DNA of 64,000 nt from an uncultured Chloroflexia bacterium (GCA_963700285.1 CAVOXA010000009.1:96001-160000), one strand, 5' to 3'. Counted from the first letter of the stretch, positions 44,424 through 61,059 are shown. The notes: a model not told the origin generated them from the letters alone. Program-made: numbers and translations.

Positions 44424-45272
44424 ATGGGGGGGCATCAAAGGGGTACGGCTAATGCCTGGGAGATGGGGAAGGTCTTGGTTGTCATCCCCGCCTACAACGA
44501 AGAGGAATCAATACGAAGGGTTGTGGAGGGCGTAAACAAACACATCCCTCTGGCGGACGTTCTCGTCGTGGATGATGGCTCATCGGATGACACAAGCCTC
44601 CGGGTTCAAGAATCTGGCGCCGAGTTGCTTCGATTACCACGCAACTTGGGTGTTGGCGCGGCGCTAGAGGTGGCACTGCGGTATGCCGAGGATCTGGGCT
44701 ATTCTTATGCCCTGCGGGTGGACGCGGATGGGCAGCACGATCCACAAGACGCCCTTCGCCTGCTGGAGGCCGTCAGGCGAGGTGAAGCTGACGTGTTGAT
44801 CGGTTCCCGCTTCCTCGATGCTGGCTCCGCTGAGAGGCTGGGGGCACGGACGCCCAAGTGGCGGCATCAGACAACTCCGGTTCGGGCTGTGGGTATCAAG
44901 GTCTTTGCCTGGCTGGTGTCGCTCCTCATTGGCCAACAGATCTCGGATCCGACCTGTGGGCTGCGCTGCTTCAATCGCCAGGCCATGTGCTACCTCGCCC
45001 GGAACCATCCCCAGGATTACCCGGAGGTCGAGTCCATGGTCGTCCTGCACCGCGCAGGCTTTCGGCTGAAGGAATTGCCGGTGGAAATCTATCCGCGCAC
45101 TGGTGGCGTGAGTTCTATCAGTGCCTGGAAAGCGGTTTACTACGTCTTTCGGGTAATGCTGGCAGCCTCAATCGCTGCCGTAAGGAGCTTGCCAAACGGG
45201 AAACCTTTAGAGGTTGAATGGAGGCCAATGGAGCCCGAAAAGATCCCGGAGGAGGAACTCCATGTCGCCTAG
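44424..45272 (+). CDS. GT2 polyprenyl-phosphate glycosyltransferase (DPM1/PpgS-like)
   Basis: VIPAYNEE, VVDDGSSD, NLGVG.A, DADGQH, GSRF, ISDPTCG.R; GGAGG RBS. Confidence 0.9.
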   Translation: MGGHQRGTANAWEMGKVLVVIPAYNEEESIRRVVEGVNKHIPLADVLVVDDGSSDDTSLRVQESGAELLRLPRNLGVGAALEVALRYAEDLGYSYALRVDADGQHDPQDALRLLEAVRRGEADVLIGSRFLDAGSAERLGARTPKWRHQTTPVRAVGIKVFAWLVSLLIGQQISDPTCGLRCFNRQAMCYLARNHPQDYPEVESMVVLHRAGFRLKELPVEIYPRTGGVSSISAWKAVYYVFRVMLAASIAAVRSLPNGKPLEVEWRPMEPEKIPEEELHVA

Positions 45273-45717
45273 AACCCAAGTGATTGGCGTTGTCATTATC
45301 GTCCTGGCACTGGTTCTCATCATGGAATTGGTTCGTCGCCGGCGGCTGCGTACCGGGTACTCGCTGCTATGGCTGTTCACCGGCCTTGTCGTGCTGGTCC
45401 TGGCCATGTGGACAGGCTTGGTAGAGTACCTGACGCAGTTTCTAGGCGTCCGGTCTCCTGGATCGATGCTATTTGCAGCCGGTATCCTGTTTACCCTTCT
45501 TCTTCTGCTGGAGCACAGCCTTTCCCTTAGCACCCTGTGGCAAGATAACAAGTGCCTGACCCAAGAAGTAGCACTCCTGGAGTGGCGAATTCGCCAGCTT
45601 GAGGCATCCCTTGAGGGTGAGCCCGTGATTCCGCCTGCAGCCTCTCGAATGGAAGGGCAACCCGATGGTGAGGGGCTTCCCAACCTGGAGGAGGAGGTCT
45701 TTGAGCTTGCCAGGTAG
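45262..45717 (+). CDS. DUF2304 membrane protein
   Basis: ELVRRRRL...YSLLW, LGV, three TM segments, LTQEVALL coiled tail; overlaps the GT2 gene. Confidence 0.85.
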   Translation: MSPRTQVIGVVIIVLALVLIMELVRRRRLRTGYSLLWLFTGLVVLVLAMWTGLVEYLTQFLGVRSPGSMLFAAGILFTLLLLLEHSLSLSTLWQDNKCLTQEVALLEWRIRQLEASLEGEPVIPPAASRMEGQPDGEGLPNLEEEVFELAR

Positions 45718-47392
45718 CAAGGTCATGGTCATCGGGTTGGATGGGGCCACGTTTGACCTGATCGAGCCCTGGGCCCAAGCACGCCATCTACCGACCTTTC
45801 AGCGCCTCATGGCGCAGGGAGCCTATGGCTCGTTGCACAGTACGATTCCCCCCATGACCGCCCCTGCCTGGACATCCTTTATGACCGGCAAGAACCCCGG
45901 GAAGCATGGCCTCTACGACTGGATCTACCGCTGTGACGATAGCTACGGCGTTTCCCCGGTGACAGCTGCGCGCTGCCATGAGCCAACTCTCTGGTCGCTC
46001 CTGAGCAATGCAGGACGGCGGGTCTGTGTTATAAATGTACCCATGACATTCCCGCCCACGAGGGTGAACGGAGCAATGATCTCTGGCTTGCCTGCCCCTT
46101 CCACCCGAGTGACCATCACCTACCCGCCTGATCTCTTGGAGGAGATCGAGGATAAAGTCGGCGAGTATCTGCTGTATCCCGATCCTGGCCAAGCCTATTC
46201 GGACAGCGGAGTGGATGCCTTTCTGGACAACCTGTACCGTACGACCGAAACCCGCCTGCGCGTGCTGGACTACCTGCGCGCCGGGGAAGATTGGGATTTT
46301 TTGATGCTGGTTCTCAATGGTACCGACACGGTCCAGCATGCCATGTGGAAATACATGAGTGCCGATCATCCACAGCACCAACCGGGCAAGCGAGAGAAGT
46401 ATGGCGATGCCATTCTGCGCTACTTTCAGTATGTGGATCGGGTTTTGGACCGGATCGTCGCCAGTCTGGACGACAGCACCACGTTGGTCATCATGTCCGA
46501 TCATGGCTTTGGGCCCTTTCACAAGTTCATACATCTCAACAATTGGCTGCGCCATGAGGGGTGGCTTCAGATCAAGGGCAGCCCTTGGGCATCCGTCAAG
46601 TCTGGTTTATTTGGCCTGGGGCTTACACCTATGGGGGTTTACAATCTGCTTATGCGCTTGGGCATGGGGGCATTCAAGCGCGAGGTAGTGCGCGGCAGGG
46701 GCCAAGGGCTTCTGAGAAAACTGTTTCTCTCCTTCGATGATGTGGATTGGCAGCATACGGCGGCATACTCGCTGGGCAATGTCGGCCAGATCTGCCTCAA
46801 TGTCCGGGGACGTGAGCCGCAAGGCTGCGTGGAGCCTGGGAGGCAGTATGAGGCCATACGCAGTGAGATCATGGACCATCTACGCCAACTGCGGGATCCA
46901 CAGACGGGCGAGCGGGTCGTGGAAGTAGTCTATCGACGTGAGGAGGTCTACTGGGGTCAAAATGTCGAGATGGCTGCTGACATTGTCTTTATCCCGACGC
47001 GATTGGAGTATTTTGGATTCGGTGAGTACGAGTTTGGTTCCAACGAGATCATTGAGAGCGTGGAACGCGGTATTTCTGGGACCCACCGGCTCAACGGGAT
47101 GGTGCTGCTTTGGGGAGCGGCAGCTTCCGCAGGCGCACATCTCAGAGATGCCCAAATCATTGACCTGGCACCTACTATCCTGCGTATTCTGGGCGAAGCG
47201 GCGCCTGATGATATGGATGGCCAGGTATTGACGCAAGCTCTCAACTCAGAGTACGCTGGCCAGTGGCCCACTGGAGGTCCTCCAGCACCCGAGTCCACCT
47301 TTCCAGCATCCGTTGCTGTGGCCGAGTACCTGACAGATGAGGACAAGGAACTCATTGCCGATCGATTGCGCGGCCTGGGCTATGTTGGATAG
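45701..47392 (+). CDS. Alkaline-phosphatase-superfamily (NPP/phosphodiesterase-type) enzyme
   Basis: IGLDGA, STIPPMTAPAW..F.TG.NPGKHG, D.VQH, MSDHGFG, SGTH, DLAPTIL, MDG, RLRGLGY. Confidence 0.88.
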   Translation: MSLPGSKVMVIGLDGATFDLIEPWAQARHLPTFQRLMAQGAYGSLHSTIPPMTAPAWTSFMTGKNPGKHGLYDWIYRCDDSYGVSPVTAARCHEPTLWSLLSNAGRRVCVINVPMTFPPTRVNGAMISGLPAPSTRVTITYPPDLLEEIEDKVGEYLLYPDPGQAYSDSGVDAFLDNLYRTTETRLRVLDYLRAGEDWDFLMLVLNGTDTVQHAMWKYMSADHPQHQPGKREKYGDAILRYFQYVDRVLDRIVASLDDSTTLVIMSDHGFGPFHKFIHLNNWLRHEGWLQIKGSPWASVKSGLFGLGLTPMGVYNLLMRLGMGAFKREVVRGRGQGLLRKLFLSFDDVDWQHTAAYSLGNVGQICLNVRGREPQGCVEPGRQYEAIRSEIMDHLRQLRDPQTGERVVEVVYRREEVYWGQNVEMAADIVFIPTRLEYFGFGEYEFGSNEIIESVERGISGTHRLNGMVLLWGAAASAGAHLRDAQIIDLAPTILRILGEAAPDDMDGQVLTQALNSEYAGQWPTGGPPAPESTFPASVAVAEYLTDEDKELIADRLRGLGYVG

Positions 47393-47407
47393 AGGTCGCG
47401 AACCGCG

Positions 47408-48274
47408 ATGATTCATAATGGCTTCACTGTCGATTTGGAGGACTGGTTCCAGGGCCTCACCAGCACGAACCCCTACCCAGAAAAATGGGCGGACTACGAG
47501 GCGCGTCTGGAAGGCAATACGGAACGTTTGCTCGCCCTGCTGGAGCGATATGGTGTCCATGCTACTTTTTTTGTCCTGGGCCACGTAGCGGACCAGTATC
47601 CAGCGTTGATCCGCCGCATCGACGCTGCGGGTCACGAGATCGGTGTGCACGGCTACTGGCACGACATGGTTCACCGCCTCACACCTGAGCAATTCTCGCT
47701 GCAGCTGGAACGGGCGTTTGAGGCATTGGAACCCCTGGTAAGCCAGCCGATTTTGGGGCACCGCGCACCCTACTTTTCCATAAACCGGCATGCGCTCTGG
47801 GCGCTGGAGGTGCTGGCAGACAAGGGGTTCACCTACGACAGCAGTTTCTTTCCCACGCGCAATACGCTCTATGGTTATCCCGAGGCTCCCCGATTTCCCT
47901 GCCGGCTGGCAACCGCCGGCGCAGCCGGGGCTACCCGGAATGGCAATGCTAGCTCTCGTCTGGTGGAGTTCCCGGTGTCCACTGCCCGCTGGCTGGGCGT
48001 TAACTGGCCAATCGGGGGGGGCTTTTACGTTCGAGCCCTGCCCTATGCCATCATCCGTGCGGGGATCCACCAGCTCAACCATCAGGGTCAACCAGCGATC
48101 ATGTACATGCATCCCTGGGAGTTGGACGTAGGGCAGCGCTTCGACAAAGTGACATTGCGCGAGCGGGTGACCCACTACTATGGCCGGCGAGGCCTGATGA
48201 AGAAGCTAGACCAGATGTTTCAGGACTTTGCCTTTGTACCGCTGGGGCGGTTGCTTGACTTTGTGCCCGCGTGA
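47408..48274 (+). CDS. Polysaccharide deacetylase (CE4, DUF3473-type)
   Basis: TVDLEDWF, ATFFVLG, HEIGVHG..H, G.RAP.FS, YDSS, GGG.Y.R, HPWE.D. Confidence 0.9.
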   Translation: MIHNGFTVDLEDWFQGLTSTNPYPEKWADYEARLEGNTERLLALLERYGVHATFFVLGHVADQYPALIRRIDAAGHEIGVHGYWHDMVHRLTPEQFSLQLERAFEALEPLVSQPILGHRAPYFSINRHALWALEVLADKGFTYDSSFFPTRNTLYGYPEAPRFPCRLATAGAAGATRNGNASSRLVEFPVSTARWLGVNWPIGGGFYVRALPYAIIRAGIHQLNHQGQPAIMYMHPWELDVGQRFDKVTLRERVTHYYGRRGLMKKLDQMFQDFAFVPLGRLLDFVPA

Positions 48275-48313
48275 GATACCGTAGGGCAGTTCGATCGAGT
48301 CCAGGGGGACAGC

Positions 48314-51300
48314 TTGGCTAACGTGGAACGGCGAGCGATGGGCCTCGCCATGGACGTGCAGCCTGGCACGGTTGTTCCAGGCTGGGGCGCCAGCCTGGCA
48401 GGCTTGTTTATCGTGCTCAGTCTGATAGCGGCCTTTCTGGCTGTGGGCCTCGGCCTACCAGCCCATCTGCCCCTGCAAGCAGCGAGCTGGCTCACCTTCC
48501 TCGCGGTCGTGATTGCCCCCGGCTATATCCTGGGTGAGATTGTCACCTGGCGCCTTGACCTGGACCTGCTCGAGCGGCTGGCGATGGCCATGCCTCTGGG
48601 GGTGGTTGTGATGGTGGCACCGGGCCTGGTAGCGATGCTGGGACATCTGGTGATCGAAGACCTGGCAGTGGGCTGGACGCTGACGGTAGGCTGCCTGATC
48701 GCGCTGTGGTTCATCCATAGGCTGCTGCTACGCAACGATTCCCGTCGTTCCATCAGTCCGCCGTGGCGCTGGTCCGACGTTGCCATGCTCCTGCTGCTGG
48801 CTGCGGCCTTTGTCTATGTGTTTCCCACACTCTCCTTGTACAAGATGGATGGGGATGCTTATGGCGTCGCTACCTTTACCGCCGACGCACTGACGGGCCG
48901 CCCACTGAACGCCACCGAACCGATCCTGGGTACTGGCAGGAGCATGGGCACCATCCGTATGGGGATGAACCAGTTGCTGCCTGTCTTTCACTTGTGGGCC
49001 TATTTCTCTCGAGCGGACCACATAGAATTGCTGGGTACCGCCTCACGGTCAATGCTGGCATTGTGGGCAATTCTGGCGTCCTACATGCTGGGCAAGGCAG
49101 CCGGACGCGGCAGCCGGCGCGTGGGATTCCTAACGGCCTCCATCCAGATGCTCGTATACCTGGCCGCGCCCTTTGTCCGTGTGGATCATGTGAGCATCTT
49201 TTTCTTTGAGCGAACCAACGCCGACAAGTTCACCGTCACAGTCACCATGCTGCCGGTGGTTGCTGCTCTGGCGATCCGCTATGTAGGTACGGGGCGTCGG
49301 GATACGTGGATCGCGCGCGCCACGTGGCTGGCGGCTGCCCTGGCCGCCTTTGCGGTATCCAGCATTCACGCACTCATCGCCGCCATGCTAGCTCTGGCCC
49401 TAAGCGCCTTTGGTGGTCTGCACCTCCTCGTCAATCTACGACGGCGCGAGGCGTGGATCCGTGTCGGTGGGCTTGCCCTCCTGACGGTGATTGTGATGAT
49501 CATGCCGCTGATCCAGCTCTTCGAGGCGCGCAGCGGAGAGGCCATGGCTCCCACGTACCCCTCCAGCTTTCAGGGCTGGTCCATTGAGGAGAGGCTGATG
49601 CCCATTCTGCCCTCGGCCCTCTCCTCCCGCTTTCACTCTATCATACCCTCATACCAGATACCAGGCCTGGATGTGTACGGCCCCCTCCCCGATCTGGCCT
49701 ACCTGGACGCGGAACAGGTCAACACTTCCACCAATCCCTTTCTGATCTGGCGCTTTGCAGTCAACATGCGTCGACAACGCATCATCGTGTTCGACCTGGA
49801 GCGTTACATTTCGGATCCGACCCTGATCCTGGAGCCTCCCTATCTGCTTGCTTTGCTCCTTCTGCCATTCCTCTTGTGGCGGCTACGTTCCGACCCTGGC
49901 GTCCAGTTCTGCTTGAGTACCTCTTTGGCCGTGCTGTTTGTCCTATTCAACCCAATCCTGACGCCCATCCTTGGCTCGCTGGTCATGCCCTGGATCCTGT
50001 GGCGGTTTGTCTGGCTGCTGCCCTATGCGCTCATCATTGCCCTGGTGTTCGACAGGTTGTTGGCTGCCTTCGTCTGGCCTCTGACCCGCTGGCCCAGGCT
50101 CAAGCCGGTCAGAGCCGCATTGGTGGCCATTGGTTCTCTGGGCTTTGTCGTTCTTGCTGCCCTGTTTTTGCGGCAGAATGTTGCGACAAATATCGAAGAA
50201 ATACAGGCACGAGGGGCAGCCCCTTTGGTCTATGCTACCCCAGACAAAATCCTGGCTCGTCTACGACGAGAGACTGCCCGGGATGGCCCGGTCATGGTCT
50301 TGGCTGACAGCAACCTCAGCGTGACGATTCCAGCGTTCGCTGGCAATGCAGACGTGGTGGCCCATCGCATTCTTGGAACGGCCGAGATGTTTCCCGCAGA
50401 TCAGCAGGACCTGGCGCTGCAGCGTCACATCGACCAATACGAGTTCCTCAACACAGCTCTGCTAACACCCCTACACATCGAAATACTGGAGCGGTATGAC
50501 GTTCGCTATGTCGTAGTGCCTGTCGGTACAAGCCTGGAGACGCAACTGCGACTCTCGCCGCAGTGGTTCGAGTGGTTGGTAGCCGATGAGGGCTATAGCC
50601 TGTACGCTGTGCATCAGCGTCCCAGTGTCACCGAGAGTGTGCTGGGAAACGCTGCTTTTCTCGAGCGCCGCTGGGAGGCGGCGTCAACCCACTACCAAAA
50701 CGCACTTGATCAAGATGTAAGTCCTGGCGCAGCCAGTACCGCAGGCGACAGCGGGTCCGGCATGCTGGCCCTGCTGGGACAGGCCGATATTTATCGCGTC
50801 AATGGCCAATTTGACCGCGCTCTCCTGACTCTCCGGCAGGCATTGGCCCAGGCGGAAACTGGCTCCACGGCAGATGGCAGGGAGGCTCCTGCATTGCATT
50901 ACCGCATGGGGCAGGTCTACGCAGACATGGGACAGCTGGAAGGGAGCATCGAGGAGTTCGATCTGGCTCAGCGAGGAGATCCCTCAAGCTTTGCATACCA
51001 CATGGCCCTGGGCGACGCTTGCCTGAGCGCCAGGCAAAGTGAATGCGCGCAAGAGCAGTTCAGGGCTGCAGTAGAACCATTGGGTCTGGCAGACGAAGCC
51101 CAGCGCCTCATGCTGCTGGGCAGCATCTGGCAGCAAAGGGCAGATGATGGCCTGGCGCTAGCCCTCTATGAACAGGCTGCAGTGGAGAGACCTGGCGAAC
51201 AGACCCAACTTGCGCTGGCAGACATGCACCGGAACGCGGCGCAGTTTGATAGGGCTGAAGCGTTGCTCCTTGCACTGCGCCAGAGGTATCCTCTCTGGGT

Positions 51301-54300
51301 CAAGCCCGACGCACATCTGCGCATTCTCTCGGCCCTGGCCCGCCTGCGAGCGGACGAAGGGAGAGTCGATGAGGCTGTTGCCTTGTTCCAATCCATCATT
51401 GGGTTGCAGGAGCAGCTGGCACAAGATACGCGTTCTACCCGCCTTGTTCTGGCTCAGACCCTGTTGGATGCCAGCGTAGACGCTCCGGACAGCGACGCAT
51501 ATCGTTTTGACAGGGTGCGTGAGGAAATAGAGCGGGTGCTGAGCCTGCAACCCCATAGCGCCGCGGCTTACATCTTGCTCGGGAATCTGTATCGCGCCCA
51601 GTACGAGCCCAGGCTAGCCATGGAGGCATACCGGTACGCACTGCGGCTGGATCCCACAGAGGCGGCAGCGTACACCTCTCTTAGCGACCAGCACAGGCAG
51701 CAGGCAACTCCTCCCGATGAAACGCTGGCCCTCATGCAGTCGGCGGTAGCGTTCAATCCCGAGCAGGCGATCTTGGCTATCTCTCTGGCGGACCAGTTCC
51801 GGCGCATGGGCGACGTCGATATGGCCATCACCACTTACCAACGTGCCCTGGGTTGGTTCGATTTGGGAAGCGCCGCGGTGGCGCCAGGCAGCAGCAGCGG
51901 ACCACAGCCGACTGGGCGCATCCGCTCCCTATCCTATTCGCGATTGGCGGCGCTGTATGAAGACCTTGGCCAGGTAGACACCGCCATGAATTACTATCGA
52001 GCGGCTGTGACGGCCGCTCCAGAACAGGCCTGGAGTTGGGTGACCTTGGGTGATGCTCTGCGACGACGCAACCGGGCTTCTGCGGCAGAGGAAGCCTATC
52101 GCACGGCAATTCAGGAAGATCCAGCACAAGTCGACGCCTATTTACACCTGGCCAGTCTGACGAGTGACCGCGGTGATTCGTCCGGGGCCTCAGAACTGTC
52201 CGAGCAGGCTCTGCAGATCGCGCTGGATGGGTCCAATCTTGCTCAAACCTCCAGAGCTTGGCTGGCCTTGGGCAGCTACTACAGCCAGTCGCCCCAGGAA
52301 CAGATCGAATTTGGTTCCGACGGGGATTTCTTCACCGGCGATGATTCCACGAGCCCAGTCACTGCCAGAGCCATGGTGGCCTATCACCAGGCGCTGGAGG
52401 CAGAAGAGAGTGTGGCTGGTGTTCGGGCGCTGGCCAGTCTCTATCAAGACTCGGGCCAGACCGAGGAGGCCATCTCTCTGTACAAGCAGCGGATCCAGGC
52501 AGGGGAGCGTGACAGGTGGGTCCCCTCCCTGCTGGCCCAATATTACGTGGGTTTGGGTGACGCCTATCTTGACGGGCGGCAACTGGAGAAAGCGATGGCG
52601 GCCTTTGCGCAGGCTGTGGACCTGGATGGCTGGTGGTCAGGTGCGCGCTTGGCTCTGGCACGGGGCTACTCTGAGCAAGGGGACCAGAGAAGGGCGCTGG
52701 CCGAGATCCTGCGTGCCACAGAGATTTCCCCAGGGGCTGCTGAGGCGCAGCTATCGCTGGCCGGTGCCCTTGATGAGCAAGAGGACAGCGAGCAAGCACT
52801 GGCCATCTACCAGGCCACTGCGCAGGCTCATCCCGGCAGCTCGCCCGCGAACCTTGCCCTCGCACGTGCCTGGCTGGATCGCTATCACTGGGACATGGCC
52901 GAGCAGAGCTACCGCCAGGCCATGGCCATGGTACCGGGTGACACCGAAGCCTACCTGGGGCTGGCCAGCCTCTACATTCTGCGGGCGCGCGCCGATGAAG
53001 CTGAGGTCTTGCTCAACAAAGCCATGGAGATTGATCGCAGCAATCCGGAAACCTACCTTCGGCTGGGGGCCTTACTGGCGCGCCGGGCCCGCCACGCCGA
53101 GGCCCTGGATGCTTATCGGCAAGCCGTGCAGATGAGCGGGCCCTGGCAGGAACCTCGGGGCGCTGACCTGGCTCAGACTGCGATCTATGCCGGGCTGGCT
53201 GGAGTCCAGCGAGCCCTGGGTGAATTCGGGCAAGCTGAGGAGAGCCTCAAAAGGGCTGTCGAGGTGAATAAAGCCAGCACCGCGTCTGGGACTGTTGCAG
53301 CCCCTTTGCTCCAATTGGCTGGTCTGTATAGAGAACAGAATCAGCCTGACAAGGTGGAGCAGACATTGCTCCTGGCTCTGGATATGCTCCTTGATGACGC
53401 CGCAAGCGACAGCCGGGGATCTCCTTCTGGCGCCTCTCAGTCAATGCTGCGCGTTCGCCTGGCATTGGCCGAGTTCTACCAGTCCATGGCACAGAGTGAC
53501 AAAGCCTTAGAAACGCTGCACCTTGCCGTGGAAGAAAACCCGGACTCGATGGCGGCGCTGACTGGCTATGCTAGCCAACTGCGTCTCATGGGGCGCGTCG
53601 AGGAGGCCGATCTGCTCTACCTGCAGGCTCAGGATGCGGCGGAGCCCACAGGGGCGGGATACCAGGCGTTGGCAGCTGCATACCAGGCTCAGGGGCAGGA
53701 GTCAGTGGCCATGGCGCTACTGAATGAGGCCACTATCCGCGATCCCAGGGACGTGGGGGCCTGGATCCAAAAGGGCCGGCTACAAATGCAGCTTGACCAG
53801 CAGTCGGGAGAATTGGAGATTGAGAACCCATCCTCGGCTTGGGTGGCGGCATTGGAGCAGGCCACCGAACTCGAGCCAGCACAGGGCCGGACCTGGAATG
53901 CTCTGGGCAATACACTGCTGGCAGCGGTGAATGACGGTGGCGACGAAGGGGCTGGAACTGGGTACTCTGCCGGCTGGGACAGGGGGACGGCGGCGCTTAA
54001 GCAGGCTATTGCCGTTGAGCCCATGTACCTGCCGGCTTATGGCGCCCTGCTGGAGGCATACCGCGAACCATCGCCTTCGAGTTCGAGCCCGTCAATGCCT
54101 TGGCGGAGCGAACAGGCGTTGGAGATTGTAGAAATGGTCAGGCTGACAGCTCCTGGTAGCCATCTGGGTCACCTCTATGAGGCGCGCGTCCAGGAGGACC
54201 TGCAACGGTGGGCTCAGGCCCGGGAAGCCTTAAAGCTGGCCATGATCCAGGCGCCGGGCCTGCCCGAGGCCTACGTCGCGATGGGCCAGCTAGAGCAGCT

Positions 54301-57300
54301 GCAGGGCAACAACGAAGCGGCGGCGAACTGGTACCGGCAAGCCAATGACCTGCGCCCAGGTGAGCGGGCGGCTTATCTGAACCTGATAGATCTATTGCTC
54401 AGCCAGGGCGAAAACCTGGAAGCTCTGAGAATAGCCCAGAAAGCTATCGGAAACCGGCCTGGGGACAGCGAGCTGCTTCTTCGCCAGGGCCGCATCCAGC
54501 GGATCCTGGGAAGGTATGCCGACGCCGAGCCGGCGCTGCTGCAGGCTGCCCATCTAGATCCCTTTAACGACAGCATTCCAGCCGAATTGGCGGCCGTCTA
54601 CGAGGCGCAGGGCAAGTTGGAAAAAGCCATTGTTGCCTACGATGATGCGGTTTCACTCAATCCTGAACAAGGAGCTTATTACGTGGCCCTGGGCCGGCTT
54701 TGGTCCGCACGAGGGCGACCGGAGCACGCGCTCTCTCTGCTTGAGAGCGCTCTGCTCCAGGTGTCCCGCCCGACGCCCCTGTATGTTGCCATGTCTGACC
54801 TCTATCTGCGTCGTGGTGAGCCCAGGCTGGCCCGGGAGATCCTCGAAGAAGGCATCGAAGCGTTGGGCGAGGACGCCCTGCTCCGGCAAGCCCTGGGCGC
54901 CTACTACCGGTCCCAGGCCGAGTTCGATCGAGCCGAAGAGACCTATCGTGACGCGGTGATCCAGCAGCCTGATGAGTATGCAGCAGATGCAAGCCAGGGG
55001 CATCTGGCCCTGGGGGGGTTTTACCTGAGCCGCGGACGTGTCGAAGAGGCGCTGACTGAGTATGAACAGGCCGCGGCTTCCGGCGCCGTGGCCGCTGCCG
55101 GTGGCGAGGCGCGCGCACTCCTGGCCCTGGGCAATGCCTACCGGGCCATGGGACGAACGGAGCAGAGCATTGATGCCTATTCCCGGGCGACTGAATTGGC
55201 TCCCAGGTCGGAAGACGCCTACAGTGGTTTGGCATCTGTGTATCGCAGCCAGGCTCGATGGCAGGACGCCCGAAGGACGCTGCAGAGTGGGCTGGCGGTT
55301 GTACCTACTTCGGGCCGGCTATTGATGGATCTCAGTGACCTGCTCCTGCAGCGGGGGGAGGTGGATGGAGCCCTTGATCTCTTGGATCAAGCGGTTCAGC
55401 TCTCGGCCAGCGCCAGGACTTATGTGGCCAGGGCCGCTCTGTACCGCGTGCTGGGACGGCCCGATGACGCGGTGCGCGACTTGGAGATGGCGCGCCAGAT
55501 CGAGCCTGGCTCTGTCGAAGCACTGGTTGCCCTGGGCAGTTTGTACCGGTCGCTGGGTGATGTCGCAGGGGCAAAAGAGGCATACAGGCTGGTTCTTTCG
55601 CTGGTACCTGGCACGGCGGCGTCTCACCTGGGCCTCGCAGAACTGGCCCTCGACCAGGGCCAACTACATGAAGCTTGGTGGCAGTTTGATGCTGCCCAGA
55701 AGGTCGAACCGGCTTCATCCGCCCCATTGTTGGGCCTGGCCGCGGCGCGTTCCAGGCAGAATAACTGGGATGAGGCCGAAGCGGCCTACCGTCAAGCGGC
55801 GGAGTTGGCTCCTGGAGCGACTGCGCCTTATATTGGTCTGGCCGACCTTGCCCAACGCCGTACGGGCAGCACGGCGGATGCCTTGGCCGTGCTCGAGCAG
55901 ATTGATGGCCCAGGACCGAGTCGTGGTACTGTCCAGCGTGCGATGGCCGGGATCTGCCGTAGCTCTTCAGCTTCTGCCAAGTGCCAGCCAGACCTCGTGG
56001 CTGAAGCCCTGCTCGAGGCGGCTCGATTGGAACCGGACAGGCCGGAAGCATATCTTTCCCTGGCGGATCTCTATCTGGCCGAGGGGCGCCCCCTCGAAGC
56101 CGGGCCCAATGTCTCCCTGGCTGAGGAGATCGCCCCGTGCGATCCTGCTGTCCATGTTGCTCAAGGCAACGTCCATCATGCGCTTGGCGATCCAGCGGCG
56201 GCTGAAAGTAGCTACCGGGAAGCCATCAGACTGGATGCCACGCGAATGGATGGACACGTGGCCCTGGCGCGATTCTATGTGGTAGAAGAAAACTATGCCG
56301 AGGCTGTAGCCGCATACCAGGAGGGCATTCGGCGGTTTCCCCTGGAGTGGTCGCTCTGGCTTTCGCTGGGCAATGTGTATCTAGCCATGGAATCGTATGC
56401 CGATGCCCTTTCTGCGTTCCAGCAGGCAGCCAAGATGAATCCTAATGCTCCCGAGCCGTGGCTGGGCCAGGGCGACGCGCAGATGGCCAGGGAAAAGTGG
56501 GAGGCAGCCCAGGAGGCCTACGAGCAGGCGCAGCGCTTGGACCTACAGCAGGCTGAAGCCTTGCTGCGCCTGGCCAGTCTCGCAGAGGAGCAAAAGAAGG
56601 CAGACAAGGCCATCCAGTATGCACGCCAGGCTGTGAAAGTCGATCCCACTCTGGCCGCTGGCTATGTAGCCCTGGGTCGCTTGCTGCAGGAGAAGGAACA
56701 GATCGGTGAAGCGGCAGATGCCTTTCTGTCGGCCATCCAACTCGATCCCCGCCGGCATGCAGCCTACAACCGTTGGATGTGGTGCTATATGGACATAAAG
56801 CGCGTGCCCTACAGTGTGGACAGGAGCCGCCTGGAGGCCGAGTTGGCCAAGATAGCCAATGGAGATCAATTGGAGACCGTATGGGCCCAGACACTCTTGG
56901 GGTTGGGCTACCTGACCCTGGAGGAGGACATCGAGCGGGCCATACAGCATCTGGAGAAGGCAGCCGAGATGGATCCCACCTATGCTGAGCTGTACCAGGA
57001 TCTGGCTCTGGCTAACGAGGAGGGCCGAGATGGCCCGCGCGCGCTGGAATGGTGGCAGAGATATCTGTATGCAGCACGCCCGAGTACGGACACCAGCGAG
57101 GCACAGAAGCACATCGACAATCTGAAACTGGTTTCTATCGAGCAGCCAGCGACTGGCGATCGGGTATCTGGAAAGGTGAAAATAGTCGGTACAGCCAAGG
57201 GTAGGATGGTCCAGTCCTACAAGTTAGTATTCCGGGCCGTGGGTTCGGAAGAGTGGTCATCAATTGGTACCGGGGCTGAACGGATCGAGAGTGGACTGTT

Positions 57301-57424
57301 GGCTACGTGGGATACCATTGGACTCTCACCAGGTGAATATCAGCTCCGGCTCGACGTGGTCAGGTCGGATGAAGATGTCAGGCCCTATGATGAGATCACG
57401 GTCATAGTCCAGCCATCGAACTGA
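48314..57424 (+). CDS. Giant 3036-aa protein: GT-C-like polytopic membrane domain, very long TPR array, C-terminal Ig-like domain
   Basis: Uninterrupted 9.1 kb ORF; many TM helices to ~50170; YDVRYVVV extracytoplasmic domain; repeated A...LG..Y...G...A...Y..A...P from ~50640 to ~57110; beta-sandwich 57125-57424. Confidence 0.8.
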   Translation: MANVERRAMGLAMDVQPGTVVPGWGASLAGLFIVLSLIAAFLAVGLGLPAHLPLQAASWLTFLAVVIAPGYILGEIVTWRLDLDLLERLAMAMPLGVVVMVAPGLVAMLGHLVIEDLAVGWTLTVGCLIALWFIHRLLLRNDSRRSISPPWRWSDVAMLLLLAAAFVYVFPTLSLYKMDGDAYGVATFTADALTGRPLNATEPILGTGRSMGTIRMGMNQLLPVFHLWAYFSRADHIELLGTASRSMLALWAILASYMLGKAAGRGSRRVGFLTASIQMLVYLAAPFVRVDHVSIFFFERTNADKFTVTVTMLPVVAALAIRYVGTGRRDTWIARATWLAAALAAFAVSSIHALIAAMLALALSAFGGLHLLVNLRRREAWIRVGGLALLTVIVMIMPLIQLFEARSGEAMAPTYPSSFQGWSIEERLMPILPSALSSRFHSIIPSYQIPGLDVYGPLPDLAYLDAEQVNTSTNPFLIWRFAVNMRRQRIIVFDLERYISDPTLILEPPYLLALLLLPFLLWRLRSDPGVQFCLSTSLAVLFVLFNPILTPILGSLVMPWILWRFVWLLPYALIIALVFDRLLAAFVWPLTRWPRLKPVRAALVAIGSLGFVVLAALFLRQNVATNIEEIQARGAAPLVYATPDKILARLRRETARDGPVMVLADSNLSVTIPAFAGNADVVAHRILGTAEMFPADQQDLALQRHIDQYEFLNTALLTPLHIEILERYDVRYVVVPVGTSLETQLRLSPQWFEWLVADEGYSLYAVHQRPSVTESVLGNAAFLERRWEAASTHYQNALDQDVSPGAASTAGDSGSGMLALLGQADIYRVNGQFDRALLTLRQALAQAETGSTADGREAPALHYRMGQVYADMGQLEGSIEEFDLAQRGDPSSFAYHMALGDACLSARQSECAQEQFRAAVEPLGLADEAQRLMLLGSIWQQRADDGLALALYEQAAVERPGEQTQLALADMHRNAAQFDRAEALLLALRQRYPLWVKPDAHLRILSALARLRADEGRVDEAVALFQSIIGLQEQLAQDTRSTRLVLAQTLLDASVDAPDSDAYRFDRVREEIERVLSLQPHSAAAYILLGNLYRAQYEPRLAMEAYRYALRLDPTEAAAYTSLSDQHRQQATPPDETLALMQSAVAFNPEQAILAISLADQFRRMGDVDMAITTYQRALGWFDLGSAAVAPGSSSGPQPTGRIRSLSYSRLAALYEDLGQVDTAMNYYRAAVTAAPEQAWSWVTLGDALRRRNRASAAEEAYRTAIQEDPAQVDAYLHLASLTSDRGDSSGASELSEQALQIALDGSNLAQTSRAWLALGSYYSQSPQEQIEFGSDGDFFTGDDSTSPVTARAMVAYHQALEAEESVAGVRALASLYQDSGQTEEAISLYKQRIQAGERDRWVPSLLAQYYVGLGDAYLDGRQLEKAMAAFAQAVDLDGWWSGARLALARGYSEQGDQRRALAEILRATEISPGAAEAQLSLAGALDEQEDSEQALAIYQATAQAHPGSSPANLALARAWLDRYHWDMAEQSYRQAMAMVPGDTEAYLGLASLYILRARADEAEVLLNKAMEIDRSNPETYLRLGALLARRARHAEALDAYRQAVQMSGPWQEPRGADLAQTAIYAGLAGVQRALGEFGQAEESLKRAVEVNKASTASGTVAAPLLQLAGLYREQNQPDKVEQTLLLALDMLLDDAASDSRGSPSGASQSMLRVRLALAEFYQSMAQSDKALETLHLAVEENPDSMAALTGYASQLRLMGRVEEADLLYLQAQDAAEPTGAGYQALAAAYQAQGQESVAMALLNEATIRDPRDVGAWIQKGRLQMQLDQQSGELEIENPSSAWVAALEQATELEPAQGRTWNALGNTLLAAVNDGGDEGAGTGYSAGWDRGTAALKQAIAVEPMYLPAYGALLEAYREPSPSSSSPSMPWRSEQALEIVEMVRLTAPGSHLGHLYEARVQEDLQRWAQAREALKLAMIQAPGLPEAYVAMGQLEQLQGNNEAAANWYRQANDLRPGERAAYLNLIDLLLSQGENLEALRIAQKAIGNRPGDSELLLRQGRIQRILGRYADAEPALLQAAHLDPFNDSIPAELAAVYEAQGKLEKAIVAYDDAVSLNPEQGAYYVALGRLWSARGRPEHALSLLESALLQVSRPTPLYVAMSDLYLRRGEPRLAREILEEGIEALGEDALLRQALGAYYRSQAEFDRAEETYRDAVIQQPDEYAADASQGHLALGGFYLSRGRVEEALTEYEQAAASGAVAAAGGEARALLALGNAYRAMGRTEQSIDAYSRATELAPRSEDAYSGLASVYRSQARWQDARRTLQSGLAVVPTSGRLLMDLSDLLLQRGEVDGALDLLDQAVQLSASARTYVARAALYRVLGRPDDAVRDLEMARQIEPGSVEALVALGSLYRSLGDVAGAKEAYRLVLSLVPGTAASHLGLAELALDQGQLHEAWWQFDAAQKVEPASSAPLLGLAAARSRQNNWDEAEAAYRQAAELAPGATAPYIGLADLAQRRTGSTADALAVLEQIDGPGPSRGTVQRAMAGICRSSSASAKCQPDLVAEALLEAARLEPDRPEAYLSLADLYLAEGRPLEAGPNVSLAEEIAPCDPAVHVAQGNVHHALGDPAAAESSYREAIRLDATRMDGHVALARFYVVEENYAEAVAAYQEGIRRFPLEWSLWLSLGNVYLAMESYADALSAFQQAAKMNPNAPEPWLGQGDAQMAREKWEAAQEAYEQAQRLDLQQAEALLRLASLAEEQKKADKAIQYARQAVKVDPTLAAGYVALGRLLQEKEQIGEAADAFLSAIQLDPRRHAAYNRWMWCYMDIKRVPYSVDRSRLEAELAKIANGDQLETVWAQTLLGLGYLTLEEDIERAIQHLEKAAEMDPTYAELYQDLALANEEGRDGPRALEWWQRYLYAARPSTDTSEAQKHIDNLKLVSIEQPATGDRVSGKVKIVGTAKGRMVQSYKLVFRAVGSEEWSSIGTGAERIESGLLATWDTIGLSPGEYQLRLDVVRSDEDVRPYDEITVIVQPSN

Positions 57425-57449
57425 ATCCGCAGCTCGCAGAGGAGATCGC

Positions 57450-58598
57450 ATGACAGAACAATCCAGCCCTGACCTTGTTGACCAGGTCAGCCCTGAGTAC
57501 GCCGAACGGGCTTGGGAGATCGGTACATATCAGGAGGACGACAAGGTCGGAGTCCTGGATCTTGTCCGGGACGAGTACGGTGAAACCGATCTTGCGGATG
57601 GAGATTACTTTGACTGGCTGAGACTGGCCTGTCCTCCAGACGTCGGCCAATGGGTCGTCAGAGAAAAGGGGACCGGCCGGGTAGTCAGCGCCGCTACAAT
57701 GGTTGGCGTTCAGGCCATTTGGAAGGGAAATGAGATCAAGGCTCTCCTGGGCTTTAACTTTCTTGTTGCCCCCGAGTACCAGCGCCAGGGGATCCACACC
57801 GCGTTCACCAGGCAGACAAGAGAGGACATACGACGGGCTGGCTACTGCTTCACCACCCTATTTCCGAATCCCAAATCCATGCCGCAACTGGTCCGTTCAG
57901 AGAACTATCACCATGTTTCCCAGGTGCCGCTGCTTGTGCGTCCTCTGAACATGCGCGCGCTGGCCGAGGCGAGGGTCAAGAACCAGCTTCTCGTTTGGGC
58001 AAGCTCCCTGGGTTGGGGCTTCGCAGGTCGCGTCATCTGGCGTGAGCCAGGCCCCCCTCATGTCGACCCACCTCTGCATATTTCGGAAGACCTCGTACTT
58101 GACGAAGGCTACGACCGCTTTTGGCGTCAGGTGCAGACCAAGTACGATCTCATGCTGGTTCGTGACCGGGCATTCCTGACGTGGCGCTTTCTCGATATCC
58201 CAACGCGAGAGTACCAGATCCTATCGGCGCGGCAGGGTGATGGGGTTCTGGGTTACATCGTGCTGCGCCAGGCAGATGCCCGGGGGACCATGTCTGGGAT
58301 CATTGCTGATTTCCTGGTCCTGCCCGGGGAGCAAGGAACCTGGGCAGGACGGCATTTGCTACACGAGGCTCTGCGGCAGTTTAGGGAAGCACAGATGCCC
58401 TTAGCCGGGGGGCTGGTACTGCCGCATACGCACGAGTATACACTCATGCGCGACGCGGGGTTCCTGAGCGTTCCGGAACCTGTTGCACCCCAGCCTTTCA
58501 ATCTGTTTGTCCGGAGTCACAGTGATGACCCTCCGCTGGAGGCGCTCACCTGCCCTGAAACCTGGTACGTTTCCATCGCCGATCATGACGCCGTCTAG
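57450..58598 (+). CDS. Tandem GNAT-fold acyltransferase
   Basis: V.PEYQRQGI motif A, FPNP.S, RDRAFL.WRF. Confidence 0.8.
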   Translation: MTEQSSPDLVDQVSPEYAERAWEIGTYQEDDKVGVLDLVRDEYGETDLADGDYFDWLRLACPPDVGQWVVREKGTGRVVSAATMVGVQAIWKGNEIKALLGFNFLVAPEYQRQGIHTAFTRQTREDIRRAGYCFTTLFPNPKSMPQLVRSENYHHVSQVPLLVRPLNMRALAEARVKNQLLVWASSLGWGFAGRVIWREPGPPHVDPPLHISEDLVLDEGYDRFWRQVQTKYDLMLVRDRAFLTWRFLDIPTREYQILSARQGDGVLGYIVLRQADARGTMSGIIADFLVLPGEQGTWAGRHLLHEALRQFREAQMPLAGGLVLPHTHEYTLMRDAGFLSVPEPVAPQPFNLFVRSHSDDPPLEALTCPETWYVSIADHDAV

Positions 58599-58661
58599 AC
58601 TCCGAAGAGGCTCAATCCTGAGCGGATCCGTGGCCTGGCTTCCTCTGGGGGACGTGATTAG

Positions 58662-59846
58662 ATGAGCTTGTCATTCGGCCGCGCTGTGTTGTTCTTGGTG
58701 GCTACCTGCCTTCTTGGTCAGGCCGTGACCGGCTTTTCCTGCGCTGAGGCGCCAGGTGCCCAGTCCGGCCAAGGCAAGGCGACTACGCCCCCGCGAAAAA
58801 ACGGTGAGGCCATCTACCGGATTGCGGCAGCCTATCCTTTCTGGCGAGCAGCCTCCTTGCCGGTGGACGAGATCCCATTCAAGTATTTGGACCAAATCGA
58901 CCACTTCTCTGTCCATCCAGGTACCCACGGCATGTTGGATGTCCCGAATGGCTTTATGATGCCTACGTTGGTCAAGCAGGCCCACCTCGCAGAGAAACGC
59001 ATTATTCTGGTTGTTGGCGGCGCGAAGGACTATGGCGCCTTCGCTGCCATGGTCGCGGAGCCGAGTGATAGGACATCCTTTGTCCGGAACCTGGTTGCCT
59101 TCGTGATGGAGCACGGCTATGATGGTGTAAACATCGACTGGGAATTCCCGCAGACGTCTGCTGACCGGCAGAACCTGAGCGTCCTGATGGCCGAGTTGAG
59201 AGCCGGCCTTGATGCCACAGGCCGGGATCTTGAACTGAGCATTGCAGTGACTTCCAACGAAAAGCGAGGTGAGTGGGTCGATGCTGAGGCCATTGCCCCC
59301 CTGGTGAGCCATTTTGTGGTGATGACCTTTGGCTACTATGGCGCTTGGGGATCCGAGTCTGGGCACAATGCCCCGCTGTATCCAGTGCCGGTTGCCAGTG
59401 ATTCTCGCTGTGTGGACCAGAGTCTGAGCTACTGGGCGGAGGCCCGAGGCGTGCCCTGGTCCAAGCTCTACATGGGTATCGCGTCCTTTGGGCTTGAGTT
59501 CGACAGCGAGGGCCTCTACCAACCCCTTCCCGATAACCCAGTGGTGTCCAAGGCGAACTACCAAGACATCAAGCCACTGATCGGTGCTGGATATACCCGC
59601 CACTGGGACAGCGCGGCCCAGGTGCCCTATCTCACCCTGGACGACGGCCCAGGAGTGTGGAGCTATGATGATCCTCAGTCCATTGGTCTCAAACGCGAGT
59701 ATGCTCTGGCCAAAGGTATGGGGGGCGTTGCCGTCTGGGATGTAACCATGGATCGCGTTGATGGCGAGCACGAGTTGCTGCAAGTGCTGGCCCACACACC
59801 GGCTCCGCACAGGGCTTTTGTCCCCCTGGTACTGAGAGGCAAGTAA
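58662..59846 (+). CDS. Secreted GH18 glycoside hydrolase
   Basis: Signal peptide; VGG, YDGVNIDWEFP, M..GY.G.W...GH.APLY, SYDD..S...K..Y.....GG...W. Confidence 0.9.
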   Translation: MSLSFGRAVLFLVATCLLGQAVTGFSCAEAPGAQSGQGKATTPPRKNGEAIYRIAAAYPFWRAASLPVDEIPFKYLDQIDHFSVHPGTHGMLDVPNGFMMPTLVKQAHLAEKRIILVVGGAKDYGAFAAMVAEPSDRTSFVRNLVAFVMEHGYDGVNIDWEFPQTSADRQNLSVLMAELRAGLDATGRDLELSIAVTSNEKRGEWVDAEAIAPLVSHFVVMTFGYYGAWGSESGHNAPLYPVPVASDSRCVDQSLSYWAEARGVPWSKLYMGIASFGLEFDSEGLYQPLPDNPVVSKANYQDIKPLIGAGYTRHWDSAAQVPYLTLDDGPGVWSYDDPQSIGLKREYALAKGMGGVAVWDVTMDRVDGEHELLQVLAHTPAPHRAFVPLVLRGK

Positions 59847-59910
59847 ATGGAAATCGCTGTGTCAATGACAAGACTGGGACCGAGCTTCTAACCGCTGCCC
59901 TTACAAAGGA

Positions 59911-61059
59911 GTGAAGATGAACCTACGAATCAACCAAAGACAAACTCGGCGCCCTCGTGCCAGCAGCACTGTGCGGTGTATGGCCCGGAAGGCTATTCTG
60001 GTCGTGGCGTTGCTTGTTGTCTCATTGCCTGCCGCTTTGTCGCCTGGTGGCGTGGCGGCGCAGCAGCCAGACTTGTCTCAACTGCCCATCAGTTTCCCGG
60101 TGCACGCACCAGAGGTCGCAGCCTACTTTAACGAGATGGCCCGTCCTGGCGATTCCGCATCCGTTCTGCCGGATCGCCACTTTCTGCTTTCCCAAACCGA
60201 GGTAGGAGAAAAGATGTTGGCCTTTCGCTCGTGGAGTGAAGCGGAATTGCAGCTCGAGAGCTTGGCCGAGCCGGTGGAGTGGATCATGTACAATCCCGAG
60301 CACTGGGAGTTCACGCCGGAGGATGAGCAGCAGGACCTGGCGACCATCGTCCAAGAGTTTGCTGAGGCGGTCCATGCCCGCGATATGAAGTTCATGTTCA
60401 CGCCGGACCGCCAATACGCGGAACTCTATCTCGGCCAGGTGGCGCCTCACGTGGATGCCGTGATGCTCCAAGGCCAGCGCCTGCAGCACGATCCGCAGAC
60501 CTTTGCCGCTTGGGTGCTGGGCATGGCTGACGTGGCGCACAAAGCCAATGAGGATATCCAGGTCTACGTTCAGGTGGGAGCGACGCGAGGCACCGCGGAG
60601 GAGATGTACGCTGCAATCGAGACGGTGGCCGGCGATATCGATGGGATCGCCGTCTGGTCCATGCCCCGGACGCTGGAAATCTTGCAGGAGTTTGTGACTT
60701 TGGTTCGCGGGGATCTGCCGGAAGTTCCTGCTACGGCGCAAGCTACCGCTGTACCATCTGCGGTTCCCACTGTTACGCCAACTGTGGCTGTCCCGACGGA
60801 AACCGCAACGACGCTGCCCCCGTCGCCTACGCCGGCAGTTACCCCGACCATGGAGCCCTCACCAACCAGCCAGGCTGAGGTGCACCCAGCCGAAATCGCA
60901 GCATCTCCAGCCATGCCAGCCGAGGCGCCGGCAAGCCAGGCGGGAGGCACGGAACCGCTAGGGGGTTGGGTGACGAGCCTCTTGCTGTTCGTCGGTGGCA
61001 TGGGAGTCGGCCTCGTGTTGGGCTTTGTGCTGGGCTGGAGCCTGAGGCGTGGTGCGTAG
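59911..61059 (+). CDS. Exported protein with a putative TIM-barrel glycanase-like domain, P/T linker and C-terminal TM anchor
   Basis: Signal peptide, YNPEHWEFTPEDEQ motif with alternating alpha/beta pattern, PT-rich stalk, TM plus RR tail; start could be 59917 or 59980. Confidence 0.6.
   Translation: MKMNLRINQRQTRRPRASSTVRCMARKAILVVALLVVSLPAALSPGGVAAQQPDLSQLPISFPVHAPEVAAYFNEMARPGDSASVLPDRHFLLSQTEVGEKMLAFRSWSEAELQLESLAEPVEWIMYNPEHWEFTPEDEQQDLATIVQEFAEAVHARDMKFMFTPDRQYAELYLGQVAPHVDAVMLQGQRLQHDPQTFAAWVLGMADVAHKANEDIQVYVQVGATRGTAEEMYAAIETVAGDIDGIAVWSMPRTLEILQEFVTLVRGDLPEVPATAQATAVPSAVPTVTPTVAVPTETATTLPPSPTPAVTPTMEPSPTSQAEVHPAEIAASPAMPAEAPASQAGGTEPLGGWVTSLLLFVGGMGVGLVLGFVLGWSLRRGA

Follow-up and report, generated by a model that had tools for sequence, protein, structure and literature searches.

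A giant reading frame in a conserved operon

We analysed a stretch of 64,000 nucleotides (the window) from an uncultured Chloroflexia bacterium (GCA_963700285.1 CAVOXA010000009.1:96001-160000). It holds a giant open reading frame (48314-57424, + strand) with same-strand neighbors; the five domains of the giant are listed in place.

44310-45272, +: GT2, predicted polyprenyl-phosphate HexNAc synthase (PpgS/GacI-like); NCBIfam; 39/39 informative loci
45262-45717, +: DUF2304 three-helix membrane partner (GacJ/Rv3632-like); PF10066, E 7.9e-24, over cut-off; 39/39 loci
45665-47392, +: AlkP-superfamily (Phosphodiest) enzyme; PF01663, E 7e-45; 42/42 loci
47408-48274, +: XrtA-type NodB deacetylase; TIGR03006, 266.6 bits against a cut-off of 276.2; 43/43 loci
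48314-48754, +: giant, four extra N-terminal membrane helices (aa 1-147) ahead of the GT-C core; AlphaFold model
48755-50200, +: giant, predicted 11-helix GT-C core (aa 148-629); Foldseek, VIA, conserved residues
50201-50623, +: giant, extracytoplasmic alpha/beta domain (aa 630-770) resembling the AglB/STT3 C-terminal domain, without WWDYG
50624-56983, +: giant, ~53 TPRs (aa 771-2890); repeat profile, Pfam TPR families
57083-57424, +: giant, Ig-like cap (aa ~2924-3036); Pfam Big_7, cap profile
57450-58598, +: GNAT acyltransferase, lineage-specific; 1/36 loci, also in genome G002
58662-59846, +: GH18 hydrolase with N-terminal hydrophobic segment, lineage-specific; PF00704, E 5e-55
59911-61059, +: anchored TIM-barrel protein; AlphaFold pLDDT 93.9, TIM-barrel fold matches; 40/40 loci
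61049-62305, +: MFS transporter, candidate flippase/exporter from context only; PF05977; 38/40 loci

The giant frame opens with TTG and encodes 3036 residues with no internal stop; the intact frame, its TPRs and its C-terminal Ig-like cap agree with a preliminary description of this DNA. A G-rich Shine-Dalgarno-like run lies immediately 5' of it. We located 134 full-length fused relatives (at least 1669 aa), and the transferase-TPR fusion is therefore no assembly accident. Split gene copies occur in seven relatives (L011, L018, L039, L053, L055, L057, and L059) but were not accepted as genuine splits; at L011, L053, L057, and L059 other genes also shift frame, which suggests sequencing indels. 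Alignment A2 leaves out six frame-broken loci (L018, L039, L053, L055, L057, and L059). Internal tandem duplication was rejected as the source of the extra length of the giant (masked self-matches score at most 145, with ~30-41% identity). A plasmid search gave no match for the locus. The operon is covered piecewise by contigs from three DNA runs, and no RNA data set is listed with it.

The conserved operon had not featured in the preliminary description. Genes for GT2, DUF2304, AlkP, deacetylase, FemAB-like acylase, TIM-barrel, MFS, and DegT proteins are found in nearly all informative loci. The GT2 has no clear membrane helix, and its best NCBIfam model is PpgS (99.7 bits against a cut-off of 370); because it lies far under this cut-off, the HexNAc identity of the sugar stays predicted. 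The AlkP-superfamily enzyme has no hydrophobic segment. The deacetylase also has none and is therefore likely cytoplasmic, with a lipid- or nucleotide-linked sugar as predicted substrate. A search for a FemAB-like gene found no match in the genome carrying our giant, and the GNAT enzyme may stand in for it. The TIM-barrel protein comprises an N-terminal hydrophobic segment, a predicted barrel with a conserved (N)-x-E after strand 4 (the Asn is replaced by Gly in a distant clade), a Pro/Thr-rich linker, and a C-terminal membrane anchor. In these neighbors the linker has a median Ser/Thr content of 20% and the anchor is present in 30/33; a Pro/Ser/Thr linker is retained even where the protein is a lipoprotein. 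Pfam and PDB sequence searches with the TIM-barrel protein returned no match, the Atlas lead was GH56 at 0.82 only, and fold matches were tied between hydrolases and unrelated enzymes; it is possibly a glycoside hydrolase or a glycan binder. Among gene clusters present in at least three loci (window and close loci), none for a polymerase, an ABC exporter, or Wzx recurs near the operon, and no GtrA- or Wzx-type flippase recurs in the close operon. The operon likely makes a lipid-linked amino sugar.

The membrane domain and its predicted GT-C fold

Sequence searches with aa 1-779 gave no match in Pfam, NCBIfam, or PDB, and TPR matches swamped the output when the alignment A2 profile was compared with PDB. 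An AlphaFold model of the same region (pLDDT 93.7) returned exclusively GT-C enzymes at Foldseek ranks 1-29, and the first non-GT-C match has an E-value of 0.05 and a TM score of 0.09. This ranking bears out the earlier assignment as a GT-C enzyme and rules out a transporter fold. By VIA, the best match is yeast STT3 (Z-score 19.4, r.m.s.d. 5.0, 453 aligned residues), with AglB at 17.0, ArnT at 15.7, and AftA at 14.2; AftA yields the longest alignment (508 residues). The modeled multi-helix core superposes on known GT-C structures, and we place the N-domain in this superfamily on that predicted fold. Alignments to GT-C enzymes begin around aa 148, solely AftA and Emb extending back to aa 75-79; the extra helices of the model span aa 24-45, 54-77, 85-109, and 114-142. 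The alpha/beta domain, which contains a conserved H684-R685 and the ILERYDVRYVVV stretch at aa 724, matches 3vu0 (Z-score 9.8, r.m.s.d. 2.8, 112 aligned).

WWDYG is the motif of the oligosaccharyltransferase (OST) C-terminal domain. A pattern search of the first 900 residues found no motif of this type in 267/267 proteins. Neither aa 1-779 nor the core produced any Pfam match, DUF1736 included, at E-values up to 10; a genome-wide search with PF08409 was empty, its controls being likewise silent. No TMTC appears among the Foldseek and VIA matches listed. The Atlas gave DUF6077 (PF19554) and DUF6541 (PF20176) as nearest sequence families (feature score 0.99). The giant itself matches neither Pfam model, distant relatives pass the cut-off, and five close relatives show PF19554 or PF20176 among precomputed matches inspected by eye. 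The giant is a remote DUF6077/DUF6541 relative and appears to be neither a TMTC (no DUF1736) nor an OST (no WWDYG). Through it these two unstudied families, on which a full-text literature search returned no paper, gain a predicted enzyme class.

An acidic DGD motif had been noted at the first large loop. It does lie in that loop (aa 179-181), following helix 5, and only its last residue is invariant: D181, K305, and R564 are found in 117/117 aligned rows and in 49/49 distant rows, where D304 (48/49), H352 (47/49), and R300 (44/49) are also conserved and D179 is kept in 7/49 only. From sequence conservation, D181 rather than D179 is the catalytic candidate. D181 supplies the acidic residue that GT-C enzymes typically carry in their first outer loop, behind core helix 1, and R300, D304, K305, H352, and R564 the charged residues in later outer loops; together they likely form the active site. 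D181, D304, K305, and R564 fall in the outer loops in which catalytic residues of GT-C enzymes sit, according to the accessible portion of PMC6801728.

The Kyte-Doolittle profile shows 13 hydrophobic segments; model and hydropathy together suggest 15 helices. Lys/Arg residues number 18 inside versus 6 outside, the bias having the same direction in 136/136 relatives. The predicted 15-helix topology places the TPRs outside, as previously expected, and a conserved Cys903/Cys911 pair in the TPR region, likely a disulfide, supports this.

The TPR arm, its cap, and their distribution

Using a profile built from the giant family's own repeats, we counted 46 ungapped 34-residue TPRs and 50-56 with insertions allowed (53 at threshold 8), in line with an earlier estimate of 50-60; shuffled controls gave none in 12/12 at threshold 8 and at most one across 50 ungapped shuffles. 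Repeat-number variation among homologs, proposed earlier as a check, is pronounced: relatives have about 25 to 64 TPRs, the number changes by blocks of about 8-13 repeats, and conservation is position-specific. A conserved polar/aromatic patch comprises aa 1204-1269 and 1431-1440. Among the 120 relatives listed, 96 are 1900-2099 aa long; the ~2000-residue form lacks blocks equivalent to aa ~1575-2000 and ~2470-3036 of the giant.

The Ig-like cap (aa ~2930-3036 in this search) matches Big_7 with an E-value of 0.0023, under the Big_7 cut-off, and a profile made from 12 caps matches 17/272 proteins scanned. It is confined to forms of at least 2586 aa, and the commonest form has none. A recent single origin of the capped long form was rejected (p-AU 1e-77 with 12 capped rows forced into one clade), in a test on 28/272 rows chosen by hand, with the group defined after a quick tree had been seen.

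The giant occurs in 18/61 and 12/61 genomes of two carrier families (center genome and weak matches counted) and in 2/300 genomes phylum-wide, many of these genomes being incomplete. Records labeled Litorilinea carry the gene at L044, L048, and L051. Around distant giants, whose N-domains are about 25-33% identical, a matching gene set is found in G014, G015, and G021; in G017 the giant is present and DUF2304 was not matched. A MurJ-like gene lies directly downstream in 4/5 distant loci encoding ~3000-residue forms (G003, G015, G017, and G021, two genera only). At the two loci read further, G015 and G017, the same strand continues with genes for Wzy_C, GT4, epimerase, WecG, and Wzz.

Proposed function and comparison with known systems

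The giant is a Chloroflexota membrane protein joining a predicted GT-C sugar-transferase fold to ~53 TPRs. We lean towards a role in which it decorates a cell-surface glycan using a lipid-linked amino sugar, aided by its unusually long arm; such decoration is likely because the protein sits in a conserved operon that probably produces this sugar. The operon gives a hint of the donor and favors a glycan acceptor. From the linked GT2 and DUF2304 genes we infer a polyprenol-phosphate-linked donor: the two proteins would put a HexNAc-type sugar onto polyprenyl phosphate, the deacetylase and GNAT enzyme (FemAB-like and DegT proteins in relatives) would tailor its amino group (compare ArnA/B/D), and the MFS protein may flip the lipid-linked sugar. 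The GT-C core would transfer it via D181, D304/K305, and R564, and the arm could guide or select the acceptor, with the anchored TIM-barrel protein as a possible docking partner. In the available parts of the sources, the DUF2304 proteins GacJ and Rv3632 stimulate polyprenyl-P-HexNAc synthases and their GT-C partners GacL and Rv3779 work on wall glycans (10.1101/180810, PMC9671496, PMC3485146), while PgaA, PelB, and BcsC are TPR scaffolds binding a polymer and its deacetylase or hydrolase (PMC9384988). Since no polymerase or exporter recurs near the close operon, a polymer would be made elsewhere.

Shared donor chemistry could also serve O-glycosylation of extracytoplasmic proteins, the arm picking clients; we judge this unlikely, yet a serious contender. 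Targets would be folded domains (as for TMTC/TMEM260) or Ser/Thr-rich linkers (as for PgfM1/PgtC2), a possible client being the anchored TIM-barrel protein. The architecture is that of TMTC and TMEM260, the GT-C plus TPR enzymes of tested function, which glycosylate proteins, and the top structural scores go to the protein-acting STT3/AglB. Streptococcal GT2 plus GT-C systems are described, in the portion of PMC12041528 available, as glycosylating Ser/Thr-rich linkers of membrane proteins, to which the linker of the TIM-barrel neighbor is akin. Missing DUF1736 and WWDYG signatures speak against a protein acceptor, as do the function-tested DUF2304 systems, which in the accessible accounts act on glycans, and the Wzy/Wzz/MurJ clusters adjoining distant giants. 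Pro/Thr linkers are common among Chloroflexota surface proteins, and the linker is thus weak evidence for such an acceptor. It appears improbable that the GT-C core is itself a polymerase adding amino-sugar units singly from the lipid donor, with the TPR groove leading the chain outward and setting its length, and the TIM-barrel and GH18 proteins trimming or releasing it. The close operon does hold two outer hydrolase-like genes and no recurrent separate polymerase, repeats vary in position-conserved blocks, and AftA aligns over the greatest length; mycobacterial Aft/Emb/Mpt enzymes build chains. However, Wzy_C and Wzz beside distant giants would already polymerize and size a chain, and processivity has no direct support.

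Similarly doubtful is a one-protein polymerase and track, with polymer fed along a 25-45 nm TPR superhelix, and we would be surprised if block-wise repeat number set how long the chain grows or how high it is delivered in the Chloroflexota envelope, layered and free of an outer membrane; if true, polymerase plus track would mean that bacteria have a further, new way to make and export surface glycans. The arm had been proposed as a ruler, conduit, or scaffold, and of these the ruler is weakened. A superhelix spacing envelope layers as ruler or strut, its Ig cap bound to the outer layer and transferase activity secondary, is very improbable. By the measure of AlgK, in which 9.5 TPRs span 70 Å in the part of PMC9384988 available, a straight arm of ~53 repeats would be roughly 40 nm long. 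Most of the relatives listed fall in one length class (1900-2099 aa), and the envelope of Litorilinea is built of inner, outer, and protein layers, their make-up undescribed in the accessible text of PMC13319060. Patchy distribution and variable repeat number argue against a fixed ruler, as do the uncapped commonest form and the invariant catalytic residues.

Glycan decoration would make this a nine-gene surface-glycosylation operon, defined here in a phylum with undescribed envelope-layer composition, as far as PMC13319060 was accessible. A literature search, with most subscription papers and supplements outside its coverage, found no description of the giant-plus-operon system. Arm length varies naturally while repeats are conserved by position, and it can thus be tested whether TPR length sets client choice, chain length, or reach.

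Multi-component transmembrane glycosylation combines a GT-A enzyme making polyprenyl-P-sugar, a GtrA- or Wzx-type flippase, and transfer to a surface polymer outside the membrane (PMC8035078, in part). By gene family and linkage only, the GT2 and DUF2304 pair (39/39 loci) corresponds to the GT-A enzyme and membrane partner; the flippase might be the MFS protein (38/40 loci) or, in 4/5 distant loci, the MurJ-like protein. In the accounts accessible, PpgS (Rv3631)-Rv3632-Rv3779 and Streptococcus pyogenes GacI-GacJ-GacK-GacL likewise unite a soluble GT2, a DUF2304 partner, and a GT-C enzyme, and the mycobacterial/corynebacterial galactosamine pathway of the former is expected to include deacetylation, as here. 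Rv3779 is presumably a DUF6541 member, and DUF6541 was detected in Corynebacterium glutamicum. Unlike those systems, our GT-C protein bears tens of TPRs and an Ig cap, the GT2 is under the PpgS cut-off, and the operon adds AlkP, FemAB-like/GNAT, DegT, MFS (not Wzx/GtrA), and anchored TIM-barrel proteins. The Arn pathway (ArnB-ArnA-ArnC-ArnD-ArnEF-ArnT) shares aminotransferase, acylation, GT2, NodB-type deacylase, flippase, and GT-C steps (PMC7911091, in part), and ArnT matches the N-domain structurally; however, the operon neighbors are far under Arn family cut-offs, ArnT lacks TPRs, and LPS genes are absent from Chloroflexota, which rules out lipid A as acceptor.

The preliminary likening to TMTCs holds as architectural analogy only. 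TMTC1-4 (GT105) and TMEM260 also have 11 core GT-C helices and luminal or outside TPRs, about 10 directly following the helices in TMTCs, whereas the giant has 15 predicted helices, four of them extra, an AglB-type globular domain before ~53 TPRs, and DUF6077/DUF6541 kinship. OSTs (STT3/AglB/PglB, GT66) are the best structural match, with core and C-terminal globular domain; they differ in the donor, which for OSTs is a pyrophosphate oligosaccharide and here, going by the linked GT2, would be a monosaccharide on a monophosphate. Many DUF6077/DUF6541 members, unlike the giant, are short and have few TPRs or none. PgaA, PelB, BcsC, and AlgK have a long outside TPR arm encoded with deacetylase and hydrolase-like genes; in the material available they carry 9.5-19 repeats, an outer-membrane porin, and processive GT2 synthases, whereas here an inner-membrane GT-C protein carries the arm as a fusion, and the phylum lacks a standard outer membrane. 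TMTCs have about 10 repeats and BcsC/PelB are given 19 in those partial accounts; the arm, at about 25-64, far exceeds both.

Architecture and predicted fold of the putative transferase

With 3036 open codons, the predicted transferase gene is the second longest reading frame in the 7.05-Mb assembly, in which its N-domain (residues 1–779) occurs only once. The window features are as follows.

48314–57424 (+), TPR-armed predicted GT-C sugar transferase
44310–62305, operon genes in one direction, with gaps of at most 64 bases
59911–61059 (+), anchored protein, predicted TIM barrel
25450–30688 (-), complete rRNA operon (16S, tRNA, 23S, 5S)
63715–63797, tRNA just past the operon region

The longer frame (4533 codons) lies on contig C14 near 311616 (-), and contig C1 carries near 907447 (+) a 1252-codon frame with ~9 hydrophobic segments and 8 TPRs. 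We located DGD at residue 179, ILERYDVRYVVV at residue 724, the TPRs and an Ig-like end (final ~110 residues), in agreement with the preliminary description. A profile made from repeats of the protein's own family finds 46 ungapped TPRs, 50–56 if insertions are permitted and 53 at threshold 8 (0 repeats in 12 shuffles), which fits the room for roughly 50–60 repeats noted earlier.

The membrane part has no match in Pfam (DUF1736 included), NCBIfam or PDB sequence searches. The ESM Atlas lead is DUF6077/DUF6541 (score 0.99), which appears, among the families displayed, in 12 of 36 distant matches scanned from at least 131 new ones; TPRs in these 12 number from 0 to dozens. The genome has two further genes over the DUF6541 cut-off and two weak ones, of which the two scanned received no NCBIfam name (L061, 838–3303 (-); L062, 703–3399 (+); L063; L064).

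An AlphaFold model of the N-domain (117-row alignment, pLDDT 93.7, pTM 0.93) returns GT-C enzymes at Foldseek ranks 1–29. The best structural comparison by VIA is with yeast STT3 (residues 148–773, Z 19.4, r.m.s.d. 5.0, 453 residues), followed by AglB (Z 17.0), ArnT (15.7), AftA (14.2), and Pmt4 (13.7), in support of the GT-C fold proposed earlier. Because the alignment covers residues 148–773, the core would start at helix 5, behind four extra helices. In the model, DGD is the first-outer-loop motif of GT-C enzymes as outlined in an excerpt of PMC6801728; the earlier assignment thus stands for the motif, but Asp-179 is kept in only 7/49 distant rows and the core begins at helix 5. Asp-181, Lys-305, and Arg-564 are invariant. 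Residues 630–770 resemble the AglB C-terminal domain; WWDYG was not found there, and we did not class the protein as an OST. Nor did we class it as a TMTC, since DUF1736 is absent; the TMTC-like label suggested previously would apply as an analogy of architecture.

On a topology of 15 helices, assigned by hand from the secondary structure of the model, 18 Lys/Arg lie inside and 6 outside, and this inside-positive bias is common to 136/136 relatives. The C-terminus, and hence the TPR arm (residues 771–2890), is predicted to be on the outer side, as anticipated; a conserved Cys-903/Cys-911 pair in the arm is consistent with this placement.

Repeat number and distribution

We found 134 fused relatives; among 120 listed, 96 have 1900–2099 residues and 10 at least 2500. 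All 50 genome loci found are labelled as Chloroflexota. Repeat number varies among homologs, as had been asked: 44 proteins contain 25 to 63 ungapped repeats, mostly 30–33, and a distant giant (a ~3000-residue relative) reaches 64. Repeats at matching places are ~40–58% conserved versus ~30–35% elsewhere, two blocks of our protein are missing from the ~2000-residue form, and relative P0008 and the giant of genome G014 contain internal 340-residue (ten-repeat) duplications. The ~2000-residue forms group as one clade in N-domain trees (support 100/99), with several Ig-capped long forms as neighbors; giants bearing the cap turn up again in distant clades. The capped long form is thus probably the older one, from which the common form would have been shortened. 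Presence is patchy (10/40 relatives, 2/300 phylum genomes; 18/61 and 12/61 genomes in two other families), in counts that include incomplete genomes and rest on a single query protein.

Conservation of the operon

Gene presence at informative loci. The 50 loci are kin, so counts are not independent; informative loci have enough flank or a match, a rule slightly favoring matches.
GT2, 39/39
DUF2304, 39/39
AlkP enzyme, 42/42
Deacetylase, 43/43
FemAB-like, 42/44
TIM-barrel protein, 40/40
MFS, 38/40 (one miss is a flank ending earlier)
DegT, 36/38

The AlkP gene is the operon's most constant partner. Stronger evidence than counts in kin loci comes from the giants of G014, G015, and G021, whose N-domains are only ~25–33% identical to ours and which have AlkP, GT2, DUF2304, deacetylase, FemAB-like, and DegT genes nearby. 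In our genome, where no FemAB-like gene or clear DegT ortholog was found, GNAT and GH18 genes are inserted in their place, likewise in G002. Some distant loci have two to three tandem AlkP/Phosphodiest copies and others sulfotransferases at nearby positions (L067, 12973–18069; L069, 4038–9169; L068, 12013–12912; L081, 7558–9365), so the glycan may carry sulfate or phosphate groups. Further loci contain two other fusions of a membrane glycosyltransferase with TPRs, each beside a family member (L066, L070), and two groups of upstream genes (L075, L079)

L066, 2–2338 (-), PMT_2 plus TPR fusion adjoining the G015 giant
L070, 12710–17017 (+), Wzy_C plus TPR fusion adjoining a DUF6077 gene in G001
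L075, 6869–8635 (-), by eye phosphoheptose isomerase-like and sugar kinase-like genes just upstream of the G015 operon
L079, 4478–8138 (-), genes of acyltransferase and ketosynthase type, upstream of the cluster that contains the G017 giant

In the predicted TIM barrel, strand 4 is followed by a conserved Glu, a position at which several clans of glycoside hydrolases typically have one; its fold scores point to no one clan. The barrel occurs in 7/23 genomes of the order, and each of these 7 belongs to the 10 in which a GT-C relative is present. This family without a name is linked to the operon; the window copy is anchored C-terminally, and the G014 protein takes the form of a lipoprotein whose Pro/Thr linker is N-terminal.

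Acceptor and donor

The component parts belong to known kinds; for their combination, repeat number and operon, we found no description among the open-licence papers listed by our searches. We slightly favor modification of a glycan by the GT-C enzyme, during which the TPR arm would serve as scaffold; excerpts of PMC9384988 describe TPR arms of up to 19 repeats to which a polymer binds together with the enzymes that modify it. The acceptor leans to glycan because MurJ-like genes lie downstream of 4/5 distant giants examined and Wzy_C, GT4, epimerase, WecG, and Wzz genes follow the giants of G015 and G017. These neighbors speak against protein glycosylation, to which we give about one chance in four in spite of the STT3 top scores, the TMTC/TMEM260 precedent of acting on proteins (PMC7801869 and PMC10214176, in part), and glycosylated streptococcal linkers (PMC12041528, in part). 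A polymerase does not recur in the close operon, which counts against a glycan acceptor. That the GT-C enzyme is itself a polymerase with a TPR track seems improbable, and an arm acting as structural ruler very improbable.

The operon's GT2 and DUF2304 would supply a polyprenyl-monophosphate HexNAc donor: they are the same kind of pair as GacI-GacJ and PpgS-Rv3632, which make this donor for a GT-C according to portions of 10.1101/180810, PMC9671496, and PMC3485146. G017 has no DUF2304 match, so its donor may differ. Since no hydrophobic segment was found in the deacetylase, acylase, AlkP enzyme or aminotransferase, these likely act inside, tailoring the donor, as do enzymes of the Arn pathway (excerpt of PMC7911091). 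The operon fits the multi-component transmembrane glycosylation systems presented in passages of PMC8035078.
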